From: an uncultured Polaromonas sp.
GTDB lineage: Bacteria; Pseudomonadota; Gammaproteobacteria; Burkholderiales; Burkholderiaceae_C
Length of the DNA stretch: 64,000 nt
NCBI GenBank assembly: GCA_966112355.1
Contig: CBHWCZ010000007.1
Location: 22,752-86,751, forward strand
Direction: 5' to 3'
Position 1 is the first letter of the stretch. The number at the start of each line of letters is the position of its first letter. A model generated the notes under the pieces. It worked only from the letters and a program-made list of their open reading frames with translations. It had not been told where the DNA came from and did not search any database. The translations under genes were made by a program, and so were the position numbers. Positions 13,816 through 37,520 of this stretch are shown piece by piece.

Positions 13816-13825
13816 GACGGTCTGT

Positions 13826-20188: not shown

Positions 20189-20334
20189 GGGTCAGCGTCA
20201 ATGATTTGATCAGTTTGCGCCAGAAACTAGCCGGCAAGATCAATGGATTAGATGCGCTCTAGACCGGGGCGGGCCTGATCGGCAGTCTTTTGTTTAAAGG
20301 CAATTTCTTGAATACTAGCAGAGGGGTGTAGGCC

Positions 20335-23025
20335 ATGGGGACTGTCGATAGCCAGATTCGTAGCGCTGCAGAGGCGATCTCACGCAATATCCAGATGCTG
20401 GGTGAGCAGCGTGGATTGCTGTCGCAGAACGTTCTTGCTCAAATTCGGAACCTGATTGAAGGAACGCTAGTTCGCCTCCACTCTCGGTCCGCTACCAACG
20501 AGTTCCATTACGATGCGGTCGAGCCAGCATTGGCCTTTGTGAAGGGCATTGCAAAGTTCAGCTACTTGGCGAAATTTCACAAGCTAGTACAGAAGAGCGC
20601 GTCGCACTACACCCTTGACGAGGACGCCTCCGAACGCTTGATGCTCAAGTATTACGAATACCTGCATCGCATGCGGCGCTCACTCCATGACGATTGCGGG
20701 ATGGCCGTACTGGAAAACCTCGAAGATTTCCCAGTAAACCTCGACCCGTCTCTGCGCGAATATCACAAGGCGATCGCGCAGCGAGTCGACAATTCACGTC
20801 TGGCAGGCGATAACGCTTGGAACGCAAGGTACTATATTCACAAGACGCGGCCGTTTTTTGTTGGTGGCCGCATCTACTACGAGGTCACCTGCTACCTTGC
20901 GGTGAACAAGGTCAGCAAATTTGATCGAATCATTGCTTTCACTGACATCGATATCACCGACAACTATGCGGCGATGCTCGTATTGCATCGCGACTCAATT
21001 CAGGTGCTTGATCGTTCTATGCCGATCACGATCATACAGGCGTGGTCAGTGTCAGTGCGGCCATGCGAGTTCGAAAACTTTGCGCGACTTCTTGGCGAGA
21101 CCATATCCGTTCGAACGACCTCCCCTGAGTACCTGAATCTCATGCGCTGGCTGACTGTTAGCGGTGGCAGCTTGGTGGACTTGGTGGAGATGAGCGACGA
21201 CGCATATGCGGCCATGTACCAAGCGCATGCTACAGGCGCTGCGAAGCTGCAGATATTTCCACTGTTGGATAAGTCCCGTCGGATCATCCGCTCCGGGGCC
21301 ACTGGTCAGAACGTGTTGCGCTACGTCTTGCTTCGTTTGTATAACCAGATCATCAAGCAGCTCCACTCTTGGGATGCATGCAACCGCCTCTCAAACCTCA
21401 AACTCACCTGGGGTTGCATTCCTTTCGAAGAGATGCCCTTTTGCACTTCGCTTCCGGGTCATAACCCGCGATTCTGGGATTTGATCGAAAGCTTGGATGC
21501 CACGGGTCGCACACACGAGTTGCTTGCACGCCGTGTCCGTACAAATGTGGAAAGCCACGGGATTCTTTACACCGCAGTCGCCGACCTTAAGCAGTTCGTA
21601 GAGATCCCTGATCTGATCGCCACCTACAACGGGCGCCTTTACTTCAAACACACGCATCGTCACCTCGTGCTTGAGATGGATCATGTGTTCATTCGCGGCT
21701 ATGAGGACCAGACTGTTGAGATCGTCAAAAAGTTGCAGCAATCTGCAGCGTCCAGAATTGATGGGTATACGCAGGCAGTCGAGCGGTGGCTGGGCGATGC
21801 CTCGCGGGGCATTGATGATTTGATCAAACAGGACGCATTGAAGAAGTTGTTCAGTCAATCGCGCGTCGCTCTGATTTACGGGGCCGCAGGTACGGGAAAA
21901 TCCACGATGGTGAACCACATTGCGGACTATTTCAACGACAAGCAGAAACTGTTTCTCGCCCACACTCACCCAGCTGTCGACAATCTCAAACGGAGAGTGA
22001 GCGCGCAGAACTCTGAATTTCGAACGATCAGTAGCCAGACTCGTAGGAAGTCAGTCGGGACAGACTATGACCTTGTAGTCATCGACGAATGCAGCACCGT
22101 CTCGAACTCTGACATGCTGGCGGTCCTTGCCAGCACGTCGTTCAAACTCCTGGTGCTCGTTGGCGACGTCTATCAGATCCAGGCTATTCAGTTTGGCAAC
22201 TGGTTCGGGATCATTCGCTCTTTCATCCCGACTGAATCAGTGTTCGAGCTCACGACCCCTTACAGGGCAAAGAGCGCGTCTCTCGTGTCGTTCTGGGACA
22301 AGGTGAGGCGCATAGAGGACGACATTGCCGAATCAATGGTCAAGAGCCACTACACCACTGTGCTGGACAGGACGCTTTTTGAACCCCTGCGAAATGACGA
22401 AATAATCTTGTGCCTGAATTACGATGGTCTTTATGGCATCAACAACGTCAATCGTTTCTTGCAGAGCGGCAACGACGGGGACGCCACGATATGGCGTACG
22501 CAGACCTACAAGGTCGGTGACCCTGTGCTCTTCAACGAGATCGAGCGATTCCGTCCGGTCATCTATAACAATCTGAAGGGCCGAATCGTCGAGATTCAAG
22601 CGGCAGCAGGGCAGATTCACTTCGATGTTGAATTGGATCGGCCGTTATCAGAGTTCGATGTGGATGGGGACGAGCTTCAGTGGATAGGTGGATCTACCGT
22701 TCGCTTCGCCGTCTACGAGAAGGACGCGAGCGATGAAGATGACGATTCGATCAATACGACCGTGCCTTTTCAAGTCGCGTATGCGGTGTCAATTCACAAG
22801 GCTCAGGGACTTGAGTACGACTCGGTGAAGATTGTTATTACCGATGCGAACGAGGATGCAGTCACTCACAGCATCTTTTACACGGCTATTACGCGAGCGC
22901 GCGAGAGACTGCGAATCTTTTGGACACCCGAGACCCAACAGACGGTGCTCGCTCGTCTTGCGAGGCGCGAAAGCAGAAAAGATGTCCAGCTCCTTGTGAA
23001 ACGAACAGGGCTGACGCCGGTGTGA
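20335..23025 (+). CDS. SF1B (RecD-like) DNA helicase with long N-terminal region
   Basis: GAAGTGKST, IDECS, VGDVYQI, SIHKAQGLEY, YTAITRAR. Confidence 0.88.
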   Translation: MGTVDSQIRSAAEAISRNIQMLGEQRGLLSQNVLAQIRNLIEGTLVRLHSRSATNEFHYDAVEPALAFVKGIAKFSYLAKFHKLVQKSASHYTLDEDASERLMLKYYEYLHRMRRSLHDDCGMAVLENLEDFPVNLDPSLREYHKAIAQRVDNSRLAGDNAWNARYYIHKTRPFFVGGRIYYEVTCYLAVNKVSKFDRIIAFTDIDITDNYAAMLVLHRDSIQVLDRSMPITIIQAWSVSVRPCEFENFARLLGETISVRTTSPEYLNLMRWLTVSGGSLVDLVEMSDDAYAAMYQAHATGAAKLQIFPLLDKSRRIIRSGATGQNVLRYVLLRLYNQIIKQLHSWDACNRLSNLKLTWGCIPFEEMPFCTSLPGHNPRFWDLIESLDATGRTHELLARRVRTNVESHGILYTAVADLKQFVEIPDLIATYNGRLYFKHTHRHLVLEMDHVFIRGYEDQTVEIVKKLQQSAASRIDGYTQAVERWLGDASRGIDDLIKQDALKKLFSQSRVALIYGAAGTGKSTMVNHIADYFNDKQKLFLAHTHPAVDNLKRRVSAQNSEFRTISSQTRRKSVGTDYDLVVIDECSTVSNSDMLAVLASTSFKLLVLVGDVYQIQAIQFGNWFGIIRSFIPTESVFELTTPYRAKSASLVSFWDKVRRIEDDIAESMVKSHYTTVLDRTLFEPLRNDEIILCLNYDGLYGINNVNRFLQSGNDGDATIWRTQTYKVGDPVLFNEIERFRPVIYNNLKGRIVEIQAAAGQIHFDVELDRPLSEFDVDGDELQWIGGSTVRFAVYEKDASDEDDDSINTTVPFQVAYAVSIHKAQGLEYDSVKIVITDANEDAVTHSIFYTAITRARERLRIFWTPETQQTVLARLARRESRKDVQLLVKRTGLTPV

Positions 23026-23079
23026 ACAAAAGGCAGAGGAGTCCAGCTCAGATTTTCCTCAGAGTATCTCGAAGAGGTG

Positions 23080-23106
23080 GTCTGCTTTTGGCCCGATAGC
23101 GGACAC
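23080..23106 (+). repeat. Cargo hairpin motif copy H5
   Basis: gtctgcttttggcccgatagcggacac. Confidence 0.8.
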
Positions 23107-23180
23107 TCTCTGGTTGGCATTTAATAACCGTTGTGCAGCAGTAGCGGCCACCTGGCGAGTCGGGTCGCTTCTGTAGGAAC

Positions 23181-23438
23181 TCAGCGCCGTTTTATCTGCC
23201 GGTTTAATTGATCCAAACTACCAAGTCCCAGCTTCTCCATCGCATCGTCACCGCTTATCTCACCTGCCTCATACAAATCCAGTATCTCCAGGCGTTCATA
23301 GTCCGGGCTGCCAAATTCTCTTCCTACAGGTGCTACGTCGAGCCATGCTTGCTCTTCAGCGGACCACGGCCAGACTTTTCGGTTGAACTGGCCATGACGC
23401 AGCTGGCTAATCCGACGCTTATTCTTTCGGATGCTCAT
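23181..23438 (-). CDS. Small hypothetical protein
   Basis: 85-aa ORF with upstream gagagagcc; plausible composition (WLDVAPVGREFGSPDY). Confidence 0.55.
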   Translation of the reverse strand: MSIRKNKRRISQLRHGQFNRKVWPWSAEEQAWLDVAPVGREFGSPDYERLEILDLYEAGEISGDDAMEKLGLGSLDQLNRQIKRR

Positions 23439-23638
23439 CAGGCTCTCTCTCTTTGCTAGGGGACATATTCGCAGTCAGCTGAGATTTTTACTGACATCCC
23501 TTGGTCCTTGACCAGTTCGACCGCTCAGCGTTGAAGTCAAGACTGAGTTTCCTTCTTGTAACCATACACCGCCTCCAGTTTCATCGACCACCTCAACAAA
23601 GTGTCTATGAAACCGGCATCAACGGAATTTAATCCAAG

Positions 23639-23929
23639 TCAGAGCATCCTCACTCTATCGGCGACCGTAGGAATACTTTCGTATGGCAAGGTGTTGTCTT
23701 CCAGCAGTGCGCGCGCAGCTTCGCGCGGGACCAGCATCACCACCTGCTCGTTTGCGTGAGCGAGGGCCAGTAACGTAACGACAGTGAAATTTTGGTGCCC
23801 ACTGAGCGCTCTGCTTACACTTTGACGAGTCAGACCTGTTCGCGCAGCAAGATCCACATCGCTAGCGATCTTTCGACCGCGGCGAAGACTCTCGGCCAAG
23901 CTTTTTAGGGTATTCATTTGTGAATGCAA
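23639..23929 (-). CDS. XRE-like HTH protein
   Basis: DLAARTGLTRQSVSRALSG...TVVTLLALA. Confidence 0.7.
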   Translation of the reverse strand: MHSQMNTLKSLAESLRRGRKIASDVDLAARTGLTRQSVSRALSGHQNFTVVTLLALAHANEQVVMLVPREAARALLEDNTLPYESIPTVADRVRML

Positions 23930-24077
23930 GTAATGACTCTACTTCGGTGAAAAATAATGTTAATTATATTTAACATTTCTGCGATTTGTTAAATATATTT
24001 GACAAACCAAATGGGCGAGAAAACGTGCTGACCAGCACAGAGATCGCTGCCGAGGAGCCGACACCAGTCACTTACCA

Positions 24078-24110
24078 ATGTCCAGTTCTGGCCCGAAGGC
24101 CGTCGACACA
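24078..24110 (+). repeat. Cargo hairpin motif copy H6
   Basis: atgtccagttctggcccgaaggccgtcgacaca. Confidence 0.7.
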
Positions 24111-24528
24111 AAGACCACCTCCAGGACATTGATCCGACCGGCTGAATGCTGGCTTCGAAGATTACTAATCGACAGGGTCGCAGGCTAACTGAAATGCGGG
24201 GGGAGCCGGAATAGTTTCACTTACCTATGAAACGGTAGGGCACGACGAACTGGGGTGTGATCTTGTGCACGTGCTGCCGTGAGCATCAATTTTTCCTCTG
24301 TTGGTGCTGCCTGTCCTAGGCTACAGGCCAAGAATACTAGGCATCTATGAGCACAGCACCGCCTACCCCCAATTGGTTAGCGATGCTTGCGGGGGAGGTG
24401 CCGCCTCCCGAGCGTCGAGAGCGTATCCATGGCGCGGGAGAGTTGCTCGTCGGGCGCATGGTTCAAACCGATGTGCAGGCGAGTGACACCCTGATCGGAA
24501 GGGCTACGCTTTCAAAACGAACCCTATT

Positions 24529-24687
24529 TTGGAGCCCCTAGACTGCATTGAAAACCGCGATGCCGTTCTCAACGCTGACGGGACCCAGGCGGCCTGGCCA
24601 GCGGCTAGTGTTGTCGTCGGAAATCCTCCGTTTGTAGGCAGCAAGAAGATGAACAGGGAGCTCGGAAAAGAATACTCCGCAACCCTT
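24529..24687 (+). pseudogene. Internal fragment of an MmeI-like (type IIG/IIL) adenine methyltransferase
   Basis: LDCIENRDAV...WPAASVVVGNPPFVGSKKM.RELG.EY (NPPF motif IV); lacks both ends. Confidence 0.75.
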
Positions 24688-24811
24688 AGCGCCGGAAAGT
24701 GGTCGCTCAAACGTCAAATTGCCGCATATTGCTAGACGGGTACGCAGCAATTGCTGTCAGTCACAACTCAGTAAGGACGGTCGCAAGGAGCGCGCATCGG
24801 ATAGCTGAACC

Positions 24812-27790
24812 TCAGAACGTGACTCGCAGCCGCTTGGCGCGCTCTTGGAAGGCCCGCTTACCACCTTCCAGAATCGCGCATACCGTTTCGCGTATCGCCG
24901 ACTCTTCAAGGCCTCCAGACTGGTAATTCATACGCGGCAAGCGCCCGGGTTCATGACTACCGCAACTAGCGACGATTACCTGGTCAGCATCCGTGTTGAC
25001 GACAAGATTGGCGTTGTGCGTGACGATGATGACCTGGCGTCGAAGCTTTGCGCGCTGGAACTCCACAACAAGTTCGTCGTAGATCGACTGGGGATCGAGG
25101 TTTTCTTCGGGCTGGTCCACAATCAGTGGCCGGTCGTCCTGGGCGTCTACCGCCAAATACAAGAGCAACAGCACAATCCCTCGCGTGCCTGGGGACAGAC
25201 GCTCAATCGGGACACCGTCAAACTCCAAACCGTAACCGACAGAGATGTGCTCGGTGCCGAACAACCATGCCGAGACGGAGCGGGCCCACTCTTTGGGCTC
25301 GGCGTGATCTGGACGATGGACGCGAAGGTCCTTGCCGTAGGCAGCTACGAACTGCAGCAATGCTTCGCACGCGGCTGCGGCGTCGCCGGACTGCCAAGCT
25401 TCTAGCAGCGAAACTCCGGCGACCGCCCGAAGGCTACCCTTGCCTTTGAAGGGGCCTGCCGCACGCAGGTCTAGCAGGGCTTCGCCGGCTTCGCACCAAA
25501 CGTTTAGGTCGACATGCCGCCGAACGGTGAATGCCAACTTTGACAGTGAACCTTGCGCCTGCGAAATCTGGGCCTTCAGCGGCTGGTACAGCGCCTCCAG
25601 CGCGGCCTCTTCGTCCACCACGGCCTGGAACACACCGACATATGCTTCACGGCGCTGCTGCCGCAGGGAAGTGATCCTGTCGTCCGCCCCATTTGCCCGG
25701 CCGATCTCGGCGTCCATCTTGGCAAGTCCGATTTTTGCCGTGGACACCCGATCACTGATTAGCTTGAATCGCCGTGCGTTCTGTGCATCCAAGCCTATCA
25801 ATTGGCGTAGGCGGCCTAGTTCTCGCTCCAGCAGAGTCAAGGGATGTTTGGATAGGTCATCGGCTTCAGCAATCAGTGGCACGTTCGGGTCGGCCTGGGC
25901 ATCGTGCGCGGTCGTCGAGGCGTCACCTTCTAGGGTGCGCAGAGTCCGACGGATTTCTTGTTCAAGCTGGGTAAGGATCACGTCCACATCGCCAGCGAAT
26001 ACCAAGCGGAACCTCGCCCATTCGCCGACTGGCAACTCGGCTTCCTCGCGCTCCGTCTGCATTCTTTCAAGCATATCCGGCAGTACCCGCTCCCGCAAAT
26101 TTTTGACGTCGGCTGTCAGATGACGTAGAGCCTCCAGCCGGACCTTTGCCTTAAGTACTTGTGAGCGTTTAGTGTCGACTGCTTGCGATACAGCATCATG
26201 GCGCATGGCGCGGTCTGTATCCCCCTTAGGCATAAGCGCCTTCATGTCAGCCTCATCGTTCTGGAGGGCCTTCAACTTTTCGGTGCGGTCCTTTATCAGT
26301 GAGGCCAGCCCATCTTTCCTCGCTTGCTCGGCGGCCATGGCCTGTGACGCCCGCGAGATGGCATCGACCTGACGGACGCGGCTGGTCCTTGCGCCTTCCA
26401 GCCGGATTGCCAGCAACTCTTCGAACGAAGTGGCGTCCAGCCGATCTGCTTCCGAGTGCGCGTCGAAAACGACGCGCTCGATTTCCCGGAGCAACGGATC
26501 TTCCAAGCCCTCAGCTGAGCACAGTTGGTCCACGAATTGCTGGGACAGATATTGCACCTGTGGCGCGTCGACAAGATCCTCCATTTCCAAGCCCGAGAAG
26601 GAGTTTGAGGTCGTGTCCCCCGACTCCCAAAGCAGCTTAGCTTCGGACCCATTCAAATGGTCCGCGGCACGACGCAGAAAGGACTTATCGCTGAGGTGGG
26701 CGTAGACCGCGCAGCCACCCATTGCGATGAAATCAGCGAGAGCCGTCTTGCCCGATCCACGCGCGCCGATAATGGCGATGAGGCCAGGGTTCAACTCAAT
26801 GGACGAGGGCGACATCCATGGCGCTTGGCTCACGGTGACCGAGCGGATGACATTGCTAGGCAGAGCGCCTCTCGGTGGCTCAGCACCGATGAAGACGCGG
26901 CCTTCCGGGTTCATGCAGGCCTGGCGTAGGGTTTCGAAGCTCGAAGCGCCTTTGAGCCAGCAGTACCTATTCAGCGCAGGCTTGCCGACCTTCTCGTATC
27001 CATGTGCATCAGAGCCGTGCAAGCAAGGCTTAGGCCCACCCCATTTTGCATTCAGCTCTGCCAGTGAAACAGCGCCTTTGCCTTGGTAGAAGGCCGCTTG
27101 CTTGGGGTTACCACTGAAGATTATGTGGGCGAAGCCTTCGATGTTAGTGCGCGTTGCAGAAAATGACGACGACTCGTCGCGCAGCCCCGATGTGCCGTCG
27201 CGTTCACCAGCAGCGACCGCAATCAGACAATTGCTGCGGAGCCAGTCGCTCCCCTCCCAAGTCTGACGCAGATCCTCGAAGTCGATCTTGAACTGGTTAA
27301 CCCCTGCCGTAAGCGCTGCGCCGTTGTCGACAATGGACGGATCATGCGCGCGTCCGAGCCGGATTAGTTCCGACCGCTCACAACGGAACTCATCGCGCAG
27401 GTAACGAAATTTGAATCCGGCCATTAAGCGCCGGATGCGCTCCATATGGTCGTCTGCCTCAGGCGAGAACAGGAGATGGGCATTGATGGCCGCGTTGCTG
27501 GAGGTGCCGATCGATAGCCGGATCTCAACGTTGGGCAACAGCAGTTCAACGCCAGGCAGGCGGCCCCCTGCCTGCACAGCCAGGGCCGTTTCGTAAGTGT
27601 CGATAAGGAAGTAATCAGTGATGCCCAATACCTTGATCGCCGGTTCATGCTGGTTGACTCGATTACAAAAATCTGCCCATGGATCGTCTCCCGAAAATTG
27701 ATCGTTCATCGCGGTACCGGGAGCATGGATATGGGGATCCCAGCGCTGCCACAACGAGCCGCGGGTCTTGTCCGATGCGACGTCTTTCAT
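24812..27790 (-). CDS. PHP-domain + ABC/SMC-type ATPase (TrlF/Ppl-like)
   Basis: WDPHIHAPG, GITDYF, GSDAH; Walker A GARGSGKT; coiled coil; LSPG signature, VDQPEENLD, VTHNAN. Confidence 0.85.
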   Translation of the reverse strand: MKDVASDKTRGSLWQRWDPHIHAPGTAMNDQFSGDDPWADFCNRVNQHEPAIKVLGITDYFLIDTYETALAVQAGGRLPGVELLLPNVEIRLSIGTSSNAAINAHLLFSPEADDHMERIRRLMAGFKFRYLRDEFRCERSELIRLGRAHDPSIVDNGAALTAGVNQFKIDFEDLRQTWEGSDWLRSNCLIAVAAGERDGTSGLRDESSSFSATRTNIEGFAHIIFSGNPKQAAFYQGKGAVSLAELNAKWGGPKPCLHGSDAHGYEKVGKPALNRYCWLKGASSFETLRQACMNPEGRVFIGAEPPRGALPSNVIRSVTVSQAPWMSPSSIELNPGLIAIIGARGSGKTALADFIAMGGCAVYAHLSDKSFLRRAADHLNGSEAKLLWESGDTTSNSFSGLEMEDLVDAPQVQYLSQQFVDQLCSAEGLEDPLLREIERVVFDAHSEADRLDATSFEELLAIRLEGARTSRVRQVDAISRASQAMAAEQARKDGLASLIKDRTEKLKALQNDEADMKALMPKGDTDRAMRHDAVSQAVDTKRSQVLKAKVRLEALRHLTADVKNLRERVLPDMLERMQTEREEAELPVGEWARFRLVFAGDVDVILTQLEQEIRRTLRTLEGDASTTAHDAQADPNVPLIAEADDLSKHPLTLLERELGRLRQLIGLDAQNARRFKLISDRVSTAKIGLAKMDAEIGRANGADDRITSLRQQRREAYVGVFQAVVDEEAALEALYQPLKAQISQAQGSLSKLAFTVRRHVDLNVWCEAGEALLDLRAAGPFKGKGSLRAVAGVSLLEAWQSGDAAAACEALLQFVAAYGKDLRVHRPDHAEPKEWARSVSAWLFGTEHISVGYGLEFDGVPIERLSPGTRGIVLLLLYLAVDAQDDRPLIVDQPEENLDPQSIYDELVVEFQRAKLRRQVIIVTHNANLVVNTDADQVIVASCGSHEPGRLPRMNYQSGGLEESAIRETVCAILEGGKRAFQERAKRLRVTF

Positions 27791-27822
27791 CTTCCACTCC
27801 TCTTCTCTCGACGTATGACCAC

Positions 27823-28452
27823 TCACCAGACCCCTTCAATCGACGGGGCACAAATGACTAGTTTCTTGGGTGTACCTTGGTTGCCACCTAGGGCCAGTTC
27901 CTTCAAGGCCGATGGAGGACGGCGGTACCAAGTAAGGCAGACATTTACAAGGTCAATCGAGCCAGCCGATTGAGAATCAATCAACGACTCAGCAAGCGCA
28001 GAGTCATGCTCAAGGTAGAAGTCCCCGACTCGCTCTAGATCGTTGATGCTGGCCTTCTGTTCGGCCAATGGCTTCTGAAGCATCCGCCTCGGCACGTTTA
28101 GCGGGTGCCCGTCTTCCGTGATAGCCATGCCCATGATGGGCGCCATGAAGTCAACCAGCCAGCCTTGGCACTCCACCCACGCGTGAAACGCCCGCCTGTC
28201 ACTTTCAGGCCCGTTCCCAATACGTCCATACATGGCAACGCTTGCGCTTTTATCGTCAACCATCATCCCCATGAATCCAGCGCTGATCGTAGCGTGGAGC
28301 TTGTAATGCTGCCGAAGGATCAACGTCCCTGCGATAGTGAAAAAAATACAGGCTCGATGGGTACGTGCAACTTCGCTGGCCTCAAGTACGCTGTAGATGA
28401 CTTGATAAATGCGCTGATAGACCGGCAGCGGGATCAGTGGGTGAGCCTTCAT
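27823..28452 (-). CDS. DUF2026-like protein
   Basis: LIPLPVYQRIY...ACIFF...AFHAWVEC..WLVDFMAP. Confidence 0.6.
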   Translation of the reverse strand: MKAHPLIPLPVYQRIYQVIYSVLEASEVARTHRACIFFTIAGTLILRQHYKLHATISAGFMGMMVDDKSASVAMYGRIGNGPESDRRAFHAWVECQGWLVDFMAPIMGMAITEDGHPLNVPRRMLQKPLAEQKASINDLERVGDFYLEHDSALAESLIDSQSAGSIDLVNVCLTWYRRPPSALKELALGGNQGTPKKLVICAPSIEGVW

Positions 28453-28679
28453 GCTGTTACTTTACACGGCACCCTCATATTGCATCCCTGTTCAACTACG
28501 AAGTTGTGGCTGAAGGACACCCGGTCAGGAGCGAGATTTCAGCAATCTACCTTGAGTAAGCTCGTATCGCGAGGTCAATCGCTCGTAATGGCTGAGGTTA
28601 TCTAGTACCGAATCCGGAGATCAGACCACTGGATGTCTTTAAGGAAGCCGGTTTTGATCCAGGGTTCGATAATGCGTGG

Positions 28680-30317
28680 ATGGTTTCCTCTCACGTCCCT
28701 GCTATTGTCCTGACCACCCTCAACGCAAAGTACATCCACGCCTCGCTTGGCCTGCGCTATCTCTTGGCCAACATGGGGGCGCTGAAGCGGCAAACCGTGC
28801 TGCGGGAGTTCACCATCGCGCGAAGGGCATCTGAGGTGGCGGCTGAGTTGCTGGCGACGCTGGGTGAGCCGCTGTCGGGGACTGTGCAGGTCATCGGGTT
28901 TGGCGTCTATATTTGGAACGTGACCCAAACAACCGAAGTGGTGCGCTTGCTCAAGAACCAGCGACCAGGGGTCAAAGTGGTGCTAGGTGGGCCCGAGGTC
29001 AGCCATGAACTGGGCGAGCAGGAGATTGTCAGCCTGGTCGACCATGTGATTACAGGCTGGGGTGATGTGAGTTTTCCGAAACTGTGCCGCGCGCTCTTGC
29101 AAGGGCCGCAACCGCTGATGAAAATCATCAAGGGTGAAGAGCCGCCGCTCGACGACATCGTACTGCCCTACGCCGAGTACACCGATACCGATCTGGCGCA
29201 CCGCCTGCTCTACGTCGAAGCGTCGCGCGGGTGTCCTTTTAAGTGCTCGTTTTGCCTAAGCTCACTCGACAAGACCGCTTGGGCGTTTGATTTGGACGCT
29301 TTTCTGGCCGAGATGGCGGGGTTGTACCAGCGCGGTGCGCGGAATTTCAAGTTTGTCGACCGTACGTTCAACCTTAAGATTGATGCCTCGGTGCGCATTC
29401 TGCAGTTTTTTCTGGATCGGATGACAGACGATTTGTTCGTGCATTTTGAAGTCGTGCCTGACCACTTACCAGATCGACTCAAAACTATGATTGCGCAGTT
29501 CCCCCCAGGAGTGCTTCAGTTTGAAGTGGGCGTGCAAAGCTTTAATACTACGGTTCAGCAACGCATCTCGCGCAAGCAGGACAACGACAAAACCGCGCTG
29601 AATTTGCGCTGGCTGGTGCAAGAGTCCAACGCGCATTTGCACACCGACTTGCTGTTTGGCCTGCCGGGCGAGTCGTTGGAGAGTTTTGCAGCGGGCTTTG
29701 ACCGCCTGCACGCCTTGCGGCCGCACGAAATTCAATTGGGGATTTTGAAGCGTCTGCGCGGCACGCCGATTGCCCGCCTCACCGCGGCATACGGCATGGT
29801 TTATGACCCCGAGCCGCCCTACACCGTACTGCAGACCGGTGCCGTGGACGCGGATACGATGAAGCGTTTTACGCGCTTCTCGCGCTACTGGGATCTGGTC
29901 GCCAATTCAGGGCGTTTCACGCAGACGCTGAACTTATTGCTGGGAGTCGGCGCCGAGACTTGCGCCGATGAACCTGCCGATGGGGACGTCACCCCAGCCA
30001 GCGTGGTGCCAGCATCGCCGTTTTACGCGTTCATGGGTTTTGCCGACTGGCTCTGGCAAAGCACCACCAAAACCAGTGGGCTGACGCCCGAAGCGCTGGT
30101 GGATGCTCTGTGTGACTACCTGATCGGTCCGTGTGCTTTGCCTTTGGACCAAGTTCAACGCGCCTTGCTGGCCGACTATGTGGCGAGTGGCGCCCGGTCC
30201 AACCCGCATGCTCTCAAAGGCCTGTTGCCCAAACGCGAAGCTCCCCAATTGCGTGGCGTCAAAACGCTGGCGAATCGCCAGGTGCTACATCAGGCTGTTC
30301 GTCAGACTGCGGACTGA
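28680..30317 (+). CDS. Intact B12-binding radical SAM protein (545 aa), element-borne homolog of the interrupted host gene
   Basis: TLNAKYIHASLGLR, GGPEVS, EASRGCPFKCSFC, FKFVDRTFN, DLLFGLPGE; colinear with both host halves. Confidence 0.95.
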   Translation: MVSSHVPAIVLTTLNAKYIHASLGLRYLLANMGALKRQTVLREFTIARRASEVAAELLATLGEPLSGTVQVIGFGVYIWNVTQTTEVVRLLKNQRPGVKVVLGGPEVSHELGEQEIVSLVDHVITGWGDVSFPKLCRALLQGPQPLMKIIKGEEPPLDDIVLPYAEYTDTDLAHRLLYVEASRGCPFKCSFCLSSLDKTAWAFDLDAFLAEMAGLYQRGARNFKFVDRTFNLKIDASVRILQFFLDRMTDDLFVHFEVVPDHLPDRLKTMIAQFPPGVLQFEVGVQSFNTTVQQRISRKQDNDKTALNLRWLVQESNAHLHTDLLFGLPGESLESFAAGFDRLHALRPHEIQLGILKRLRGTPIARLTAAYGMVYDPEPPYTVLQTGAVDADTMKRFTRFSRYWDLVANSGRFTQTLNLLLGVGAETCADEPADGDVTPASVVPASPFYAFMGFADWLWQSTTKTSGLTPEALVDALCDYLIGPCALPLDQVQRALLADYVASGARSNPHALKGLLPKREAPQLRGVKTLANRQVLHQAVRQTAD

Positions 30318-30375
30318 ATCATTAACGCCACCTTCTAGCTTTTCGAAAATTTCAGGGACGATCGAGGGGAGACCA

Positions 30376-31287
30376 TTACTCCTTGTCCTTCCGGGCAGAA
30401 TGAATGCTCGTCACCTTCGCTCTATCGACCTTCCCGGCCTTGGTGGGGATTTTCTTCAGTAGTTCCTCGGTAGGCACCCAGATGGCTTTCGTGCGCTTCA
30501 TGACATCGGCAGGAATCTGGTGGGTCGACTTACCTTTATGGGTCGCGTCGATGATTTGGTAATCGAATCCAAGATCGACGTAGGGCTGTACGTCCTGGAC
30601 AGTCGCAAAGACGTTGGCGACCACCACGTACTCGCCATCGGCCAGCGCCTTCCGTGTCTGCTCTAGGCACCATGCGTGAGCCTGCGGCAGCTTTGTTTCG
30701 TCAAAGGCATAACCGTCTTCTGCCTGGAAGAACTGATCCGATTCGAAATGCTGGTACCCGTCTTCACGGTAGCCGTTGGCCTTGGTGCTCTTTCCGCTGC
30801 CAGGCAGTCCTCGAATCAGGACTAGGCGAGGTAATGCCGCTTCCTTTTGCGGTAGATGAACCACTTTTTCAAACTCGACTACCAGTTTGCGCAACTGAGA
30901 GGCTTCCGCCGCATCTCGCCGCGCATTCACTTCGGCCTTTCGGCGGGCGAGCACATGATCCGCCATCTTGGTTTCCAGAAGGCGCTTTTCTGCTTTGACG
31001 GTAGCCAGGTCCGCGCGCAGGTTTTCGATGAGCTGGGTGTAAGTGGTGGGCAGCGCCTTCTTACCCCCTTGCGCGAGTTTGACGGCCTCGCGCACCATGG
31101 GGTAGCGACAATCCTCCAATGCGATCAGCGTCCTGCTGCGGCCGGCTTCACGTGCAACGCTGACGGTATTGACCTTTAGCTTGCCAGCCTTGGCACTGGC
31201 TTTGAGTATTTTGTTCTGCGGCTTGCCCTCTACCAACCGGTGAAGGGCTTCGAGGAAGTCCTGCTCAATGGGGTCAGGCTGGGGCAT
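30376..31287 (-). CDS. Recombination auxiliary (TnpC/Srap-like) domain fused to a P-loop kinase (AAA_33-like)
   Basis: N-terminal VAREAGRSRTLI HTH plus coiled coil; C-terminal LVLIRGLPGSGKST...ESDQFF...AHAWC; overlaps the intB-like gene. Confidence 0.75.
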   Translation of the reverse strand: MPQPDPIEQDFLEALHRLVEGKPQNKILKASAKAGKLKVNTVSVAREAGRSRTLIALEDCRYPMVREAVKLAQGGKKALPTTYTQLIENLRADLATVKAEKRLLETKMADHVLARRKAEVNARRDAAEASQLRKLVVEFEKVVHLPQKEAALPRLVLIRGLPGSGKSTKANGYREDGYQHFESDQFFQAEDGYAFDETKLPQAHAWCLEQTRKALADGEYVVVANVFATVQDVQPYVDLGFDYQIIDATHKGKSTHQIPADVMKRTKAIWVPTEELLKKIPTKAGKVDRAKVTSIHSARKDKE

Positions 31288-33475
31288 GCTCAGCCTCCAA
31301 CGTCTGTTCGATCTGTCGGTCCAGTTGCACCACCTTAACGCCGATCTTCTTGAGCAGCTTGCCGGCCTGCTCGGCGCGCTCCTTGATCACCTTATAGCCA
31401 CTGACATCACCGCTGCGCTCCGCCCGTTTGTACGCCAGCCAGTTGTCCAAGTACCTTGCTGCCCAGAAGTCCGCGTGCCGGGCATCGAGTACAAAGCAGC
31501 CGCAGCCAGCGCACAGCGACGGTTGGCGCGTGCGGGTATTGGGTTGCTTACGCAGGAGCAACGACGTGCCAGCCTCGTCCTGGCAACGCATCTCATGGGT
31601 CCTCAGAGGCATGCAGGCACCGTGAGGTGAGAAGAAGATCGGTAGTTGCGCGTGCTCGCAAAACTTCACGACTTCCTTGTACGCATCGCTCGTCGGCAGT
31701 CCCTTGACCTGCTCAGCCAGTTTCTGCGTCGCCTGCTCCAGTTCCTCACCCATCCTGCCCGCAAGCGGGTTGCAGCCCAGCACGTTTTCGAGAATCATCA
31801 GGTTGCGGGCCTGGGTCGCCACCGACTCCATATCATTGAGTAGACTCATGTTGCTCCCGATGTAACCGCTGTCCGTCATAGCCATCGACATGTGATGAAA
31901 CTGCAACTGGATAGCAGGCATTAAGCTTGGGTCAACGGCGAACATAAACTGCGCCCAACTCTTTCGTAGCATGTGACTTTTGAAGACGTGCCCCTTGGAC
32001 TCGCGCCACTCGATAAGGTCGTTGTCCTTGATCTTGTGCCGTGACTCTTTCGGCAAACCCGACAGATCGACCCAACGTTCAATGAAACGCTTCATGCTGA
32101 GGAGCATCTTGTCGGAAGTCAACTCCCCTAGCCCGGTGGTTTTGACTGGCAAGACTATTCCGCCGTGCATCCCCAGAAGCAAGCGGGTCGTCTTGGCGTG
32201 CTCATGCCAAGGCTCATACAAGCGGTTAAGTAGGCGCAGGGCGCGCACGGGAAGCGGTTCATCCATGGAACCTTTCGGCCGCATACCCAGCACCCAGTCC
32301 ATCTCTCTAGGCAAGCCGGTTTCCGTTTTGGACAAGACTGTGCGAATCACGAACAATTCATAGAGGCCGGATGCCGAGACCTCGATCCGGACCCCCCTGG
32401 GCAACCCGCTCTCCGCATCGAACCCCGCTTCGATGCCCATCAGCTCACTGATGCGCATACCCGACATCCCTTGGATGCACAAGGCGTAGGCATCGCGCAC
32501 GGCTTCGAACAGTTGGCGCACTCGCGCCAGTGAACCATTTTGGTCTTCACTCGCATAGTTCCCGTCCAATGGCGCATGCCAGGGCTGAGATTCACCGGGC
32601 AGGTTCCTGAAGGAGAAGTCAGCAAGGAAGCGGTTGTGACGCCTCGCCCTTGCCGAACTGCCAACCCCGGCCGTTATCTTGCGAATACCTGTTTTGCTTC
32701 GTCTTTCTTCTATGTCGACTTTCGTGCCTGCGAGCGGGTCATCTAGATACCCCAGCAGGGCGATCACGTCTTCTGCCGGCCCACCCATCCACCAGGTTAC
32801 CTTGTTGAAGAGCGGTATTGCGACCTCATCAGGCAAAGGCGGAATCCAGCCCACAGCTTTGGTCGCCAACGCATCCGCGTAGTAATGTAGGCTGTGCTCG
32901 CGGAACGGGTCTTGATTGAGGGTGGGTACACCCCACCTCGTCAGCAAACGTCGCTCCGACCAGAGCTTTGGAATGATTACAAGTGCATGTTTGACTTGAC
33001 TAGTTGTAATTTCGTCTACGTCTGAACGCTCTGCGATGTAGCGCGGCAGGTCTTCGAGATAACCCTCCACATCCAGCTCATTCGGAGTTTGCATACCGCG
33101 CATTGCCATCCACGACAGGAGCCACCTAAGTCCCAGCTGGTAACTCACCATTGACCCAGCTGCCGGTACGACGCCGTTCGCTGGAGCGAGCGTGATAAGC
33201 GCAACAAGTTTTTTGGCCCACGTCAGCCGAAGTGCATGACGGGTGTCGGTGAGCCTGCTGCCGTCGCTGAGTTCCATGCCCCAGTTCACTTTGGCCTTTG
33301 TACTGCGTTGTCCAGGGGTGGTAGGCACCCACATCCAAACCGTATCCTCTCCCTTACTCAGCGGCGTGACCTGGAACGTGGCGAACTCTGCTGGGGTCAT
33401 TTCGCAGAGAGGTCGATGGCCGTTCGGCTTTTCCTGCTTTGGGACCTCATTATCGAGGGCGGAGGTCGGTTTCAT
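31274..33475 (-). CDS. Large tyrosine recombinase (IntB-like)
   Basis: GMRISEL (R), SHMLRK (HxxR), FHH, MTDSGY; Cys-rich C-terminus. Confidence 0.85.
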   Translation of the reverse strand: MKPTSALDNEVPKQEKPNGHRPLCEMTPAEFATFQVTPLSKGEDTVWMWVPTTPGQRSTKAKVNWGMELSDGSRLTDTRHALRLTWAKKLVALITLAPANGVVPAAGSMVSYQLGLRWLLSWMAMRGMQTPNELDVEGYLEDLPRYIAERSDVDEITTSQVKHALVIIPKLWSERRLLTRWGVPTLNQDPFREHSLHYYADALATKAVGWIPPLPDEVAIPLFNKVTWWMGGPAEDVIALLGYLDDPLAGTKVDIEERRSKTGIRKITAGVGSSARARRHNRFLADFSFRNLPGESQPWHAPLDGNYASEDQNGSLARVRQLFEAVRDAYALCIQGMSGMRISELMGIEAGFDAESGLPRGVRIEVSASGLYELFVIRTVLSKTETGLPREMDWVLGMRPKGSMDEPLPVRALRLLNRLYEPWHEHAKTTRLLLGMHGGIVLPVKTTGLGELTSDKMLLSMKRFIERWVDLSGLPKESRHKIKDNDLIEWRESKGHVFKSHMLRKSWAQFMFAVDPSLMPAIQLQFHHMSMAMTDSGYIGSNMSLLNDMESVATQARNLMILENVLGCNPLAGRMGEELEQATQKLAEQVKGLPTSDAYKEVVKFCEHAQLPIFFSPHGACMPLRTHEMRCQDEAGTSLLLRKQPNTRTRQPSLCAGCGCFVLDARHADFWAARYLDNWLAYKRAERSGDVSGYKVIKERAEQAGKLLKKIGVKVVQLDRQIEQTLEAEHAPA

Positions 33476-33487
33476 AGTTGCTCCTCA

Positions 33488-35536
33488 TTAGCCGATATCG
33501 GGCAGTTCAACGGTGAGTTTGCGTGACTCTTGAAGGACCTGAGGCGGAACGTTCGCCAGTAGACCGTCCAAGGCGGCGACTACGGGTGCCCAGCGATCCT
33601 TCCACACGGGGGCAGTCACTCGTATCATGCTACGGTAGATGGCACGCCGTAGCGCCTCATAGAGCATGACGTTGCTAGGATTGACTGGGCGTGCAGCAGA
33701 CAACGGGCAGTCGGGGCATTCGCCATAGGCGCTGCAAAGACGACCCTGCTTTTGATTGGGGCGCGGCGAATCAAACGGGTCTAGGCAAATCCAGCCAGGC
33801 GTTGCGCACCCTTTGCTCTCCCACTCACTGTGTTTGCGCGGATCAATCTTGCCTTCTGAGTCCAGCCAACGCTCCCTCACCAGCATAGTCTCGCCGGTGG
33901 CTTCCTTCAGCATTCGTTTCACTAGGTCGCTGGTGTAATGCGTCCAAGTGGTGACGCGGCTGGCATGGTTTCCTACCTGGCGCGCAGCCTCAAGATCGCC
34001 GCGATTGAAGAGTTGCACGTAGTCCAACATCGTCGCTCGGATCGTTTTGAGTGTAAAACTAGGAAGATTGTTGTCTTTGATGAATTTGGCAATAGCGTCC
34101 GACCAAGTCTTATCCCCCACTGCATCGTAGGTGTCGCCTCCAAAACCCTTTGCCCGCTTCATCCGATTTTTCTGGACATACAAAAAAATACGGTCGCCGT
34201 ACCTCTCTGGCTCAATCACAAATGGACGGATTCGCGAAGTTATGGCGATGAGTAGATCGAGGACCATATTGAGGCTCACCTGATTGACGCCGCCACCTTC
34301 AGGGTCCAACAGCCGTACGAGTTGTCGCCTAGCGCGCGGCTTATCGCCGGTAATTTTTGTCAAGCGAGATTCGGTTGCGTCGGACGCTTCCGCTTCCATT
34401 GATGTGTCAACCTCGTCAGCCTCTTGCGTTACGTCAAACTGCACCGCTCGCCGCCCGTTGCTCAACGGGTCAACATTGCGATCTATGTCTTTCCAATTCA
34501 GGGTAAGGATCGTGTTTGAGTTGAATACGGTTGATATGGCGATGCTCAGAACCAGCGGCACTAGTTCGCGCGCGCTCGGATAGAAGTAGCGAGTCATCTT
34601 CCCAGTACTGATACCATATTTAATCGTGTATCCGAGTAAAGCATTGTCTGCATTGATTACAGTTTGGTCGGGAATCACGCCTGGGTAGCGCTGATCAATA
34701 AGCGCAATGGCTACTGCGAGATTAGATTCCTCAACCACCGTTACGTTTCGTGTTCGAGGACTTTTTACAAGCACAGCGCCGTTGCGGCGCAATTCTCGCC
34801 CGCGCATCAGAATACTTTGGCCTTTTTCCCAATCCTCGCGCAGGGCTAGAACCTCTTTCTCGACGGCAGATATGACCGCGAGCAATTGGTCGAACTGCAG
34901 CACCTCTGTGGGTTCCACCTTGCGTTGTGCTCCACGAGGTCCACTCGGCACCAAATCAATCAAGCTCGGCATTTTAGATGCGCCAAGTGCTCCGCGTAGC
35001 GCATTGAGTTTCGAGCCGATGGTCATAGGCAGATATGCGCTTCCATCTGCTTTTCGCCTCTGACTTAACCAAGTATTGAATCCAGTAAAAATCTGTTCGT
35101 CCAAATCCGCCGGACGCAGGTTGGTGTACCCGCGCTCACCGAGAAACGCAAACCAAGAACCGCGCAGGTTTTGAGCGAAACCAATTCGGGACATGGTCCT
35201 GTAGTTCTTAATCGCCTTGAGTAACGCCTCAGCAAAGAAATCCGTCAGCCCCGGAAACGCCAGCAAGAAGCTTAGATCGAGTCGGTCGGGCTCTCCTCCG
35301 CCCTTCTTAGGGAAGATGGCAGTGAGCGTCGGCTTGCCGCCAGCTGTGCCATGTTCGATTCGTGTGGAGGGGAGGTTTTGGACGTTGGCTTGCTCAGCAT
35401 TTCGTCGACGAGCCGCTTCAAACACTTGCCGCGCGCGCTTGTTGCGGATTTTTTTGTTGGGCGGTGACTCCGGTAAGACACGTCCAGCGTTACCCGCATT
35501 CAGATCCATTGAGTCATCCATCAATCCCTCACCCAA
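33488..35536 (-). CDS. Degenerate tyrosine-recombinase-fold protein (SE CDS2-like)
   Basis: LKTIRAT, GNH, TTWTHY retained, but first catalytic Arg (FNSNTI) and HxxR His are replaced. Confidence 0.7.
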   Translation of the reverse strand: MGEGLMDDSMDLNAGNAGRVLPESPPNKKIRNKRARQVFEAARRRNAEQANVQNLPSTRIEHGTAGGKPTLTAIFPKKGGGEPDRLDLSFLLAFPGLTDFFAEALLKAIKNYRTMSRIGFAQNLRGSWFAFLGERGYTNLRPADLDEQIFTGFNTWLSQRRKADGSAYLPMTIGSKLNALRGALGASKMPSLIDLVPSGPRGAQRKVEPTEVLQFDQLLAVISAVEKEVLALREDWEKGQSILMRGRELRRNGAVLVKSPRTRNVTVVEESNLAVAIALIDQRYPGVIPDQTVINADNALLGYTIKYGISTGKMTRYFYPSARELVPLVLSIAISTVFNSNTILTLNWKDIDRNVDPLSNGRRAVQFDVTQEADEVDTSMEAEASDATESRLTKITGDKPRARRQLVRLLDPEGGGVNQVSLNMVLDLLIAITSRIRPFVIEPERYGDRIFLYVQKNRMKRAKGFGGDTYDAVGDKTWSDAIAKFIKDNNLPSFTLKTIRATMLDYVQLFNRGDLEAARQVGNHASRVTTWTHYTSDLVKRMLKEATGETMLVRERWLDSEGKIDPRKHSEWESKGCATPGWICLDPFDSPRPNQKQGRLCSAYGECPDCPLSAARPVNPSNVMLYEALRRAIYRSMIRVTAPVWKDRWAPVVAALDGLLANVPPQVLQESRKLTVELPDIG

Positions 35537-36796
35537 TCAATTTTGCAAACCGAGCAGCCTGCGGATGTCCATCACACCTTGCTTCTCACCGAAGATGGAG
35601 ACATGCGCCAGATAAGTGTCCGTGGTGACTTTCAGGCTCTTATGTCCCAGTTTGATCTGCACGATCTTCCAAGGCTCAGTTTTCCCCTGAGACTTTTCAG
35701 CGTGATAAGTCAGCACGGCGCAGTTGTGCCTAAGGTCATGGAATGAGTGAGCAGGGACTGTCTTGACATGCTTCTTACCGGTCTCAACGTCTTCCATATC
35801 AATCCGCTCAGTGATACCGCATTTCATGCATGCCAGGGCGAACATCTTCTGGATGGCGGAGCCCGTAATCCGCTTGCCTGCACTCTTGCTGGCGGCATGA
35901 CCAAGAAATAGGGCAGTGGTAGCCTTGACTCCCCGTTTCTTTCCCTCGCGCTCGCTTGATGCGCGCTCTCCGTTGATGTACGTCTGAATGGCAAGGACAA
36001 GCCAGCCTGGTGCGGCCACCTTGCGCGTGACCTTCATCTTGCCTTCTACGATCAAGGGGAAGTCCATGAGTTGTTCATGTGGCTCCACGATGATGTTCAA
36101 AAATTGAAGCGTCGTAAGCGTTGTCACATCGCCAAGTCTGGTACCTGCGACATAGCCCAGGTCACAGATAAGGCGATTACGTACTTGCCGCTTATCTTGT
36201 GTGGTTTGAACCGTGGGACCGACGTGCTCCAGTAGCTTACGCAATTGCTTTACCTGCAGCGGCCTGATTACATCCTTTCGCCCCACCTTTTTGAGCAGTG
36301 GGTCCTTTTCCTTTACACGCCCCCCCGTGGGGCGCGTGTGTGCAAGAGCGTCGTCATCGATGCGCCGATTGTCAACCAGTCGTTCCTCAATTGAAGCACC
36401 TATATCCCGGTGATACCAACCCTCGGCGCGCGCAAAGTCATAGAACCTGCGCACCGCAGTCAATTTACGGTTGATTGTTTTGTCATCGCTTGCCGCCTCG
36501 GAATAGTCGTCTGCGAATTGGTGCCTGTCTGACTCTGTCGCGGCGTGCCAGTCGATCTCTTTTAACTGACACCATTGAAACCAACTCAACAGGTCATATC
36601 CAGCGGCCGCCCAGGTGTGTGGACTTGGAGTACCGCCGACACTCACAAACTTTTGATGAAGAAAGATTGTCGGCTCTGAAAAGAGATCGACCTGATCTTT
36701 GAAATATTGGAATATCAAGGGTTGTTGTGGCACAACCAACTCTGCTCGATCACGGGCCTTAACCAGTCGTAAGTCTGCAGTTAAAAAATTGTTCAC
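35537..36796 (-). CDS. Tyrosine recombinase (IntA-like)
   Basis: AGTRLGDV, HDLRH, LGH, TTDTY: full catalytic set; 183 bp from the element end. Confidence 0.93.
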   Translation of the reverse strand: MNNFLTADLRLVKARDRAELVVPQQPLIFQYFKDQVDLFSEPTIFLHQKFVSVGGTPSPHTWAAAGYDLLSWFQWCQLKEIDWHAATESDRHQFADDYSEAASDDKTINRKLTAVRRFYDFARAEGWYHRDIGASIEERLVDNRRIDDDALAHTRPTGGRVKEKDPLLKKVGRKDVIRPLQVKQLRKLLEHVGPTVQTTQDKRQVRNRLICDLGYVAGTRLGDVTTLTTLQFLNIIVEPHEQLMDFPLIVEGKMKVTRKVAAPGWLVLAIQTYINGERASSEREGKKRGVKATTALFLGHAASKSAGKRITGSAIQKMFALACMKCGITERIDMEDVETGKKHVKTVPAHSFHDLRHNCAVLTYHAEKSQGKTEPWKIVQIKLGHKSLKVTTDTYLAHVSIFGEKQGVMDIRRLLGLQN

Positions 36797-36967
36797 GGCA
36801 TTGCTTTCACACCATCAGTAGGATGAACATAATTTATCACCGACCACTCTAATATCCATTTAAATAATGGATTTATTAAATTCCATGAACATTTTGACAA
36901 AACCTTACATTTCCGTAGATTCCAAAAAAATGAGGCGTCGAATGAGTCTTTTGTTCTGCTGCAGGGG

Positions 36968-36979
36968 AATTCCACATAA
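36968..36979 (-). repeat. Right terminal inverted repeat
   Basis: aattccacataa, directly abutting host sequence tgaaggggcagcc. Confidence 0.85.
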
Positions 36980-37520
36980 TGAAGGGGCAGCCGCGCGAGG
37001 CTTCCACATACAGCAGCCGCTTGGCGAGGTCCTCGTCGGTGTACTCGCGGTAAGGCAGGGCCAGCGCCTCCAGCGGGGGCTGCTCGCCGGCAATGATTTT
37101 CATCAGCGGCTGCGGCCCATCGAGCAAGGCGCGGCAGAGTTTCGGAAAGCTCACGTCGCCCCAGCCGGTGACCACATGGTCGGCCAGGCGGCAGATGTCC
37201 TGCTCGTTCGTTTCATGGCTGACTTCAGGGCCGCCCAGCACCACCTTGATGCCGGGGCGCAACGCCTTGAGCAGACGCACCACTTGCGTGGTTTCCACCA
37301 CGTTCCAGATGTAGACGCCGAGGCCGATGACTTCGGGCGACAGCGCCAGCAGTTCCTCGACGATCTGCGCGGGCTTCTGCTGGATCACAAACTCGCGCAG
37401 CGTGGTCTGCGCGCGCAGGCCCGGCCCGCCATGCTCATCCATGTTCGCCGCGAGGCAGCGCAGCCCCAGGGAGGCATGAATGTATTTGGCATTCAGGGTG
37501 GCAAGGACAATGCGGGACAT
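36980..37520 (-). pseudogene. 5' part of interrupted B12-binding radical SAM gene
   Basis: MSRIVLATLNAKYIHASLGLR...LLYVEASRGCPF, then homology breaks at the element end. Confidence 0.95.

Follow-up and report, generated by a model that had tools for sequence, protein, structure and literature searches.

Integrative elements of the GInt family carry three recombinase-like genes and a small fourth gene at one end, followed by cargo after the fourth gene and an AT-rich far end (PMC5385486). Their targets are gene ends or intergenic sites, among them ssb, an ABC transporter gene's 5' end, RNR alpha and HU, and the authors considered that the target genes are probably not fully inactivated (PMC5385486). 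In the SE family, the core order intA-tfp-intB-srap lies between imperfect inverted repeats of 13-19 bp; a 6-bp footprint from the left flank of the donor is copied into the new right flank, and recombination leaves no empty site (PMC10214605). SEs have been reported in Gammaproteobacteria only (PMC10214605), and Idola et al. found no Tfp or Srap homologs in Alpha- or Betaproteobacteria. Two further recombinase-based systems are Tn554, with two recombinases and TnpC, and RIT, with three recombinases of about 300-400 aa and 34-bp inverted repeats. In the papers that we searched, including the GInt and SE papers with their supplements, neither a carried copy of the target gene nor a radical SAM or recJ target of GInt, SE, RIT or BIM elements is described. 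Here, we analyze a 32,488-bp integrative element in a 64,000-nucleotide stretch of DNA from an uncultured Polaromonas sp. (contig CBHWCZ010000007.1, positions 22,752 to 86,751; the whole stretch is referred to as the window), which interrupts a B12-binding radical SAM/DUF4080 gene.

The element belongs to a four-gene tyrosine-recombinase family with a GInt/SE-like architecture, a likeness drawn from the layout. As in GInts, three recombinase-like genes and a small fourth gene form an operon at one end, cargo follows directly after gene 4, the far end is short and AT-rich, and insertion is site-specific with short imperfect direct repeats; the hosts span Alpha- and Betaproteobacteria and Verrucomicrobia. 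Unlike the published GInts, this element is inserted in the middle of a gene at a catalytic motif and carries a copy of its target. The chromosomal gene is split, the intact copy within the element has a separate origin and is under purifying selection, and matched pairs of target and cargo occur in three gene families. Target-gene complementation, with host dependence as a by-product, is the probable explanation for the carried copy.

The split host gene and the intact copy

The interrupted host gene encodes a protein of 543 aa, and its two halves are separated by the 32,488-bp island at 4493-36980 of the window. A tblastn search of the window with the intact 545-aa product resulted in three matches, namely the gene itself, 37511-36981 on the minus strand, which aligns to cargo aa 9-187 with 68% identity, and 4495-3476 on the minus strand, which aligns to cargo aa 187-537 with 62% identity. 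Joining position 36981 to 4492 gives one uninterrupted 543-aa open reading frame (ORF) without frameshift or stop. Both results agree with an earlier reading of the window from its sequence alone (the sequence-only reading), which had recognized an intact 545-aa homolog colinear with both halves of a split 543-aa host gene. It had placed this homolog at 28667-30317, of which the end is correct, whereas the ORF begins at 28680.

The break point lies between ...SRGCPF and ECEFCLS..., within the CxxxCxxC codons of the radical-SAM iron-sulfur motif, so that the island parts the first cluster cysteine from the other two. Neither half can hold the full cluster. The split gene adjoins DsbD, and the native alleles at two loci of our survey (L065 and L073; loci are given as L numbers and protein homologs as P numbers) have the same neighbor; the split gene is therefore the resident chromosomal copy.

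The cargo copy is convergent with core gene 4, with 58 bp between their ends. It exceeds the Pfam cut-offs for all three domains of the family: PF02310 (B12-binding, 40.2 bits, cut-off 32.1), PF04055 (Radical_SAM, 49.1 bits, cut-off 29.5) and PF13311 (DUF4080, 32.2 bits, cut-off 22.9). Furthermore, of 239 columns with at least 97% conservation among 114 non-cargo homologs, it keeps 237; over all DUF4080 cargo copies, 2-4 of these 239 columns are changed. The protein shares about 65% identity with the host allele (62-68% with the halves), 80-84% with native Rhodoferax-type alleles in ordinary chromosomal synteny (P0099 in L065) and 91-94% with a small clade of copies in other elements (P0093-P0095, L001, L002). 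Since the nearest native alleles are found in normal chromosomal synteny, the copy appears to have been recruited from hosts. A local duplication was rejected on the basis of the about 65% identity to the host allele and the native synteny of the nearest alleles, which come from another genus; the claim that the copy is diverged, lies on the opposite strand and did not arise by local duplication is thereby upheld. Insertion by homologous recombination through the cargo copy was rejected as well, because the junctions coincide with the terminal inverted repeats and lie outside the copy.

Among four DUF4080 cargo copies, the ratio of nonsynonymous to synonymous substitution rates (dN/dS) was 0.16-0.25, which indicates purifying selection. 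Cargo copies have diverged less at synonymous sites (0.10-0.26) than the core genes of these elements (0.45-0.76, window versus the others), so the cassette seems to have been moved between elements after their divergence. This cassette would consist of the gene together with 57 nt upstream and about 35 nt downstream. As the 57-nt block is kept in four differing neighborhoods, it may contain expression signals belonging to the gene itself, and it is the sole indication that such signals are self-contained. Wastewater metatranscriptome contigs that mapped at 85-95% turned out to be other native alleles and are uninformative on the cargo copy.

The attachment site within the cargo allele differs from that of most homologs. 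In all six cargo-clade DUF4080 alleles, S or A replaces the E of the C-x-x-x-C-E-x-C motif, a position at which 115 of the 120 homologs listed have E. Read as DNA, the codons flanking the crossover point are changed from GGC to GGG in 4/4 cargo alleles and from TGC to TGT in 3/4, and GAG is changed to TCG or GCT near the same point in the DUF4080 clade. The native site reads GGC TGC CCC TTC GAG TGC GAG TTC, and its cargo counterpart GGG TGT CCT TTT AAG TGC TCG TTT. Such an altered site would fit an insertion-immune allele; this idea is weakened by the lower overall G+C content at third codon positions of the cargo (0.70 vs 0.83). The replacement of E by S or A is not exclusive to cargo, since homolog P0132 also lacks E and sits in native synteny.

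Target genes and cargo copies among related elements

For the survey, 28 homologs of core gene 2 were aligned, and one genome per species together with a metagenome collection was scanned. This resulted in 62 loci (28 titled genome loci and 34 metagenome loci), and six more were added from contigs. The same four core genes were found in about 60 loci. The DUF4080 codon that is interrupted in the window is also used in Rhodoferax sp. U11-2br (L001), in a Comamonas metagenome-assembled genome (MAG, L002) and in an uncultured betaproteobacterium (L003 and the near-identical L072), and the terminal motif is identical in all same-codon elements. The use of one codon in four hosts agrees with the idea of the sequence-only reading that a conserved iron-sulfur motif serves as landing site across hosts.

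A cargo-clade copy lies 478 bp beyond the core in L001 and 3.2 kb beyond it in L002. In a fifth element, represented by its far junction only (L064), about 0.8 kb separates the copy from another split host gene's C-terminal half. The sequences of L003 and L072 stop 3.2 kb past the core and give no information on this point. Every informative element at this site (window, L001, L002 and L064) has a copy of this clade, with at least 90% aa identity, at varying internal positions, namely 65 bp, 478 bp or 3.2 kb away from the core or adjoining the far end, and no DUF4080 copy was found in the visible part of about 45 related elements at other sites, the very pattern that had been anticipated for a survey of homologous elements. 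That the position varies while the presence is kept is expected from selection for presence and not from a fixed structural accident.

According to gene 3, the nearest relatives of the window's element (L006, L033, L034 and others) are inserted at a different site in PA0069-family genes, and the DUF4080 lineage thus looks like a target switch. Distant relatives of gene 3 (about 25%) occur in other four-gene clusters of Alpha- and Betaproteobacteria. A tblastn search with gene 2 against 72,556 plasmids recovered only two records (Sphingobium and Methylomonas), neither of them in a radical SAM gene. The Sphingobium plasmid pSES189 (L063) contains a family member, a more distant four-gene recombinase cluster and a three-recombinase trio within 40 kb (18583-24302, 30926-36133 and 986-4454); the second cluster encodes proteins of 380, 605, 600 and 154 aa.

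Most other lineages are inserted directly after ...(S/I)(L/I)NPYRGCEH of PA0069-family radical SAM genes (24 junctions), again two residues past the first cluster cysteine. In the PA0069-inserted elements L011, L012, L028, L040 and L067/68, an intact PA0069-family gene is located 0.2-4.6 kb from the core, and L049, whose target is out of view, also carries such a copy. Six of the copies (L011, L012, L024, L028, L040 and L049) reach 407-519 bits at an NF033668 cut-off of 360, with intact ORFs and the motif CEHGCxYC or CENGCVYC. The copy of L067/68 is 95% identical to that of L012, which shares 80-84% with native Massilia alleles (native synteny in L069) and about 70% with the copies of L011 and L024. 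The copy in L028, a Verrucomicrobia MAG, is closest to the fragment of its own host, and the L040 copy is very divergent. These relationships indicate that the PA0069 cargo copies have several origins.

The recJ lineage is inserted directly after GD(Y/F)D of DHH motif I (L023, L052, L054, L055, L056 and L060). All 6/6 elements contain a full-length RecJ-family gene on the same strand, which starts 6-165 bp after gene 4 and scores 325-339 bits, below the TIGR00644 cut-off of 396.9. The host fragments are short: Pfam gave no match for them, a PDB sequence search supported RecJ for L060 only, and with a cargo-RecJ profile 5/6 scored above 300 shuffled controls. Since the host fragments vary from locus to locus but the downstream RecJs (72-100% alike) go with the element, we regard the downstream gene as cargo.

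The L055 element is a special case within this lineage, since its N-terminal recJ fragment belongs to the cargo type: compared with the cargo-RecJ profile it reaches 54.5% identity and 67.9 bits, and the other host fragments at most 20 bits. It may be nested in the spare copy of another element (2-211, 6196-6801). This case would suit a role of the internal copy as a second attachment site that recruits related elements and lets islands grow by nesting. However, the site in the DUF4080 cargo is altered at several positions flanking the crossover, the opposite of what such a landing pad needs, and no nested element was found in any DUF4080 or PA0069 cargo copy, so we consider a landing-pad role extremely improbable.

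Other interrupted genes encode a ComEC protein with Competence and DUF4131 domains (L022:7411-8517), a DUF455 protein (L005:7975-8508) and a helicase that is broken directly after DEAQ (L048:2-1093). At L018:8098-8436, the interrupted gene ends with ...VDGLDAPE; it looks nuclease-like, but Pfam gave no confirmation. Typically, members of the family seem to insert inside ORFs, at conserved motifs.

Elements of this kind gather diverse host genes, as illustrated by a block at 8-17 kb of the window with host-like G+C content (GC), and the DUF4080 cases belong to a single lineage. The homolog could accordingly be ordinary cargo from an earlier host that is functionally unlinked to the insertion site, acquired by chance hitch-hiking or as a mechanical by-product. 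The survey speaks strongly against this, as three target families each have the matching cargo, with several origins for the PA0069 copies, and at about 60 loci no cargo copy of another target family was detected. In addition, the cargo is under purifying selection, its position varies while its presence is kept, and there is no plausible mechanism by which a splitting insertion would give an intact target gene. We therefore hold coincidental carriage to be highly implausible. Instead, the cargo family switches with the target family, and the survey matches what target-gene complementation, as proposed in the sequence-only reading, had predicted.

Function of the carried copy

In the mechanism that we propose, the four-gene tyrosine-recombinase operon would drive site-specific insertion into the codons of a radical-SAM iron-sulfur motif, and this insertion would inactivate a conserved chromosomal enzyme gene. 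The element would bring along a full-length, diverged allele acquired from a related host lineage, which would replace the lost function, so that the insertion would cost the host little. The use of very conserved codons as attachment site would make the site available in many hosts. We infer that the cargo copy is expressed, complements the broken gene and is retained for that reason. By analogy with the SE and GInt literature, the element may also show copy-out behavior. As the host gene stays broken, the host would become dependent on the element, and loss of the element by deletion would also remove the enzyme. The matched pairs in three target families point to a general "bring your own replacement" strategy.

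Several findings weigh against complementation or limit its reach. In 12 PA0069-inserted elements, among them L007, L008, L014, L015 and L038, no copy is present in the visible 3.6-7.5 kb after the core. The copy may lie deeper in these elements, as in L064, where it is at the far end, or it may be absent and complementation optional. No copy was found in the visible part of the elements in the ComEC (L022), DUF455 (L005), helicase (L048) and other genes either. Across the whole family, carriage of a copy may not be universal. The four DUF4080 cases are one lineage and hence one acquisition. Moreover, L024 has an intact PA0069 copy (19656-20822) although its recombinase end (8400-8724) abuts no radical SAM fragment, and it may represent a secondary-site insertion that kept the spare gene. 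Finally, neither a sigma-70 promoter nor a terminator above shuffle expectation was detected around the cargo gene. The copy had originally been called an internal, full-length and independently promoted allele; the first two attributes hold, and a promoter of its own is at most putative, with no sigma-70 consensus found upstream.

The same anatomy would result if addiction or stabilization were primary, i.e. if the element held the only working copy to make its own loss costly and the copy were selected for retention. Elements of this architecture often fail to regenerate the empty site (PMC10214605, PMC5385486), which leaves no simple reversion, and cargo copies are found at different internal positions including both ends. 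On the other hand, many PA0069-inserted relatives have no copy nearby, and retention is thus not dependent on the copy everywhere. Both explanations need a functional copy and cannot be told apart by sequence, and neither can dependence as a by-product be distinguished from dependence as a selected function. We regard addiction as the primary role as unlikely.

An element could also install its own adapted variant of the enzyme, such as a RecJ that would leave a single-stranded transposition intermediate intact. Several targets are DNA-metabolism genes, i.e. recJ, ComEC, the helicase and the PA0069 family (JGI label 'DNA repair photolyase'), and the targets in the literature include ssb, HU, RNR, umuC and radC. 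The sub-threshold TIGR00644 score of the cargo RecJs and the E to S/A exchange in the cysteine motif of the DUF4080 clade would agree with such adaptation. However, the DUF4080 radical SAM protein has no known link to DNA, and the cargo alleles are ordinary family members (the PA0069 copies pass the equivalog cut-off, and the DUF4080 copies are changed in just 2-4 columns), several of them recently recruited from host-like alleles. A special variant is therefore very unlikely in our view.

Besides complementation at the individual locus, we tentatively consider a wider scenario, which is possible but rather doubtful. According to this, the family would home to catalytic-motif codons (radical-SAM CxxxCxxC in two families, RecJ GDYD, helicase DEAQ, and ComEC) and would repeatedly recruit spare target alleles locally; the DUF4080 spare would be insertion-immune, and the cassette would be harmless to acquire and costly to lose.

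Taken as complementation, carriage of an entire spare allele would add a third solution to insertion into conserved genes, beside rebuilt gene ends and splicing out (inteins, introns), and it would explain the site-specific use of an enzyme's most conserved codons across genera. The elements pay to carry the spare copy, which argues that loss of the enzyme is costly. Both the DUF4080 B12-radical SAM and the PA0069-family radical SAM proteins are uncharacterized, and the elements offer a new handle on both. For genome annotation, a "pseudogene plus paralog" pair may in fact be one functional unit made by an element. Furthermore, the locus provides a compact system in which addiction by gene replacement can be studied, and possibly a tool that integrates site-specifically at a conserved motif and brings its own complementing cassette.

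Element structure and comparison with known systems

The features of the element and the split gene are collected in Table 1. The island has a GC of 0.572, compared with 0.664 in both flanks, and its ends are AT-rich (0.36-0.38; 0.375 for the far end at 4493-4620). The terminal inverted repeat comprises 12 nt and is imperfect, with 11/12 positions matching. Between the far-end motif and the host sequence lies a 5-nt spacer (4493-4497). The same arrangement of far-end motif and 5-6 nt spacer, which is not host sequence, is seen in the window (GCTTT) and in L064 (TGCTC). The flanks of the element, CCCTTC(A) on one side and GCTTT(G) on the opposite side, form short imperfect direct repeats.

Table 1. 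Coordinates of the split host gene, the carried copy and further element features in the window.
Feature	Position	Strand	Basis or remark
Split host gene, N-terminal half, ends ...SRGCPF	36981..37520	-	tblastn and rejoined ORF
Split host gene, C-terminal half, begins ECEFCLSALDK..., to stop codon	3401..4492	-	tblastn and rejoined ORF
Cargo target copy, intact 545-aa B12-binding radical SAM/DUF4080, motif CPFKCSFC	28680..30317	+	tblastn, Pfam
Upstream block of cargo copy, 57 nt	28623..28679	+	conserved in four elements with unrelated sequence further upstream
Whole integrative element, 32,488 bp; core operon at high-coordinate end, then cargo, then AT-rich far end	4493..36980	-	GC, ORF rejoining, inverted repeat
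Terminal motif, recombinase end, TTATGTGGAATT	36968..36979	-	identical in L001-L005 and L022
Inverted terminal motif, far end, TTATGTTGAATT read inward	4498..4509	+	inverted-repeat comparison
Core gene 1, 419-aa tyrosine recombinase, Phage_int_SAM_1 and Phage_integrase domains (strong match)	35537..36796	-	Pfam/NCBIfam scan
Core gene 2, 682 aa, no Pfam/NCBIfam match	33488..35536	-	scan and 28-homolog alignment
Core gene 3, 733-aa large recombinase-like protein, weak Phage_integrase match to C-terminal catalytic region	31274..33475	-	Pfam
Core gene 4, 303 aa	30376..31287	-	Pfam and family comparison
Other cargo	4686..28452	.	Pfam and PADLOC matches
AbiTii	6123-7043		likely anti-phage cargo
PDC-S53 helicase	20335-23025		full-length match to PADLOC candidate PDC-S53, 1327 bits; likely anti-phage
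Ppl-like SMC-type ATPase, then DUF2026 protein	24812-28452		likely anti-phage cargo

The four core genes are co-oriented and abut or overlap each other (36796-30376). Pfam and NCBIfam hold no models for genes 2-4. An alignment of the 28 gene 2 homologs revealed conserved R495, H519 and Y529 together with a C-terminal four-Cys cluster, and the R/H/Y residues may have a catalytic role. The N-terminal ~150 aa of gene 4 are conserved family-wide, and the C-terminal AAA_33 domain (kinase-like P-loop) is present only in the lineage of the window and in neighboring lineages; in most lineages the protein has ~150 aa (compare L012:14015-14491) versus 303 aa in the window. The metabolic and regulatory block at 8-17 kb with host-like GC encodes a Mo-oxidoreductase, two ECF sigma factors, YeiH, LysR and a GDSL lipase.

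Some further observations concern short sequences near the ends. The host gene contains TATGTGGAA (codons LYVE) at 37002-37010, 32 nt upstream of the junction, and the core of the terminal motif of the element (36970-36978) has exactly this sequence; the host sequence is the same in L001 and differs at 2-3 positions in L002 and L003. This host copy may be due to chance or part of site recognition. TGTTCATG occurs in 7 copies in the window, with about 2 expected. It forms the palindrome TGTTCATGAACA at 4577-4588, about 85 nt inward of the far end. L064 has this palindrome too, and one copy of TGTTCATG lies at 36884-36891, about 90 nt inside the recombinase end. Across the family, TGTTCA(T/C) is found between the terminal motif and gene 1 (e.g. 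L007-L014, L017 and L023). The TGTTCATG and TGTTCA(T/C) repeats are candidate arm-type binding sites.

In a second isolate of the same study (run X2 on window 27500-38500), pieces of the element identical to the window were recovered at lower depth, which reflects either the same element in that isolate or carry-over between libraries. Outside the element, GC dips at 49001-50000 (0.50) and 58001-60000 (0.55-0.59).

The element does not correspond to Tn554-type or RIT elements, since its four genes encode 419, 682, 733 and 303 aa and its inverted repeat comprises 12 nt. With SEs, the order of the four genes (a small recombinase, a large protein lacking a family match, a large recombinase and a small auxiliary protein) and their sizes agree. 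Short imperfect terminal inverted repeats, here of 12 nt (11/12) compared with 13-19 bp in SEs, and a short variable spacer at the far-end motif are found in both, and the 5-6 nt spacer is compatible with an SE-type footprint. In contrast to the SE protein Tfp, which lacks catalytic residues, gene 2 keeps the conserved R/H/Y. The hosts differ as well, being Beta- and Alphaproteobacteria, Acidobacteria and Verrucomicrobia; among the 28 titled genome loci, only L016, a Stagnimonas MAG fragment, is named as gammaproteobacterial, and five titles give no class. Moreover, no replacement copy has been described for SEs.

Some integrative elements rebuild their target with a terminal fragment, e.g. 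e14 in icd and the dusA- and tRNA-specific islands. They solve the same problem, namely how to enter a conserved gene and keep it functional, but supply only the displaced gene end, at the attachment site. In the present element, by contrast, the gene remains interrupted, and a separate, complete allele is carried internally along with its own upstream block. The choice of the most conserved codons of widespread enzymes as landing site is shared with inteins and homing endonuclease genes. In this context, NF038136, the model of an intein-containing Rv2578c-family, aligns to the cargo of L011, L012, L024, L028, L040 and L049 only from profile position 335, after the Cys motif, which suggests that in a sister family this motif region is occupied by an intein. 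An intein cuts itself out of the protein, whereas in the elements described here the gene is left broken and a spare copy would compensate for it.

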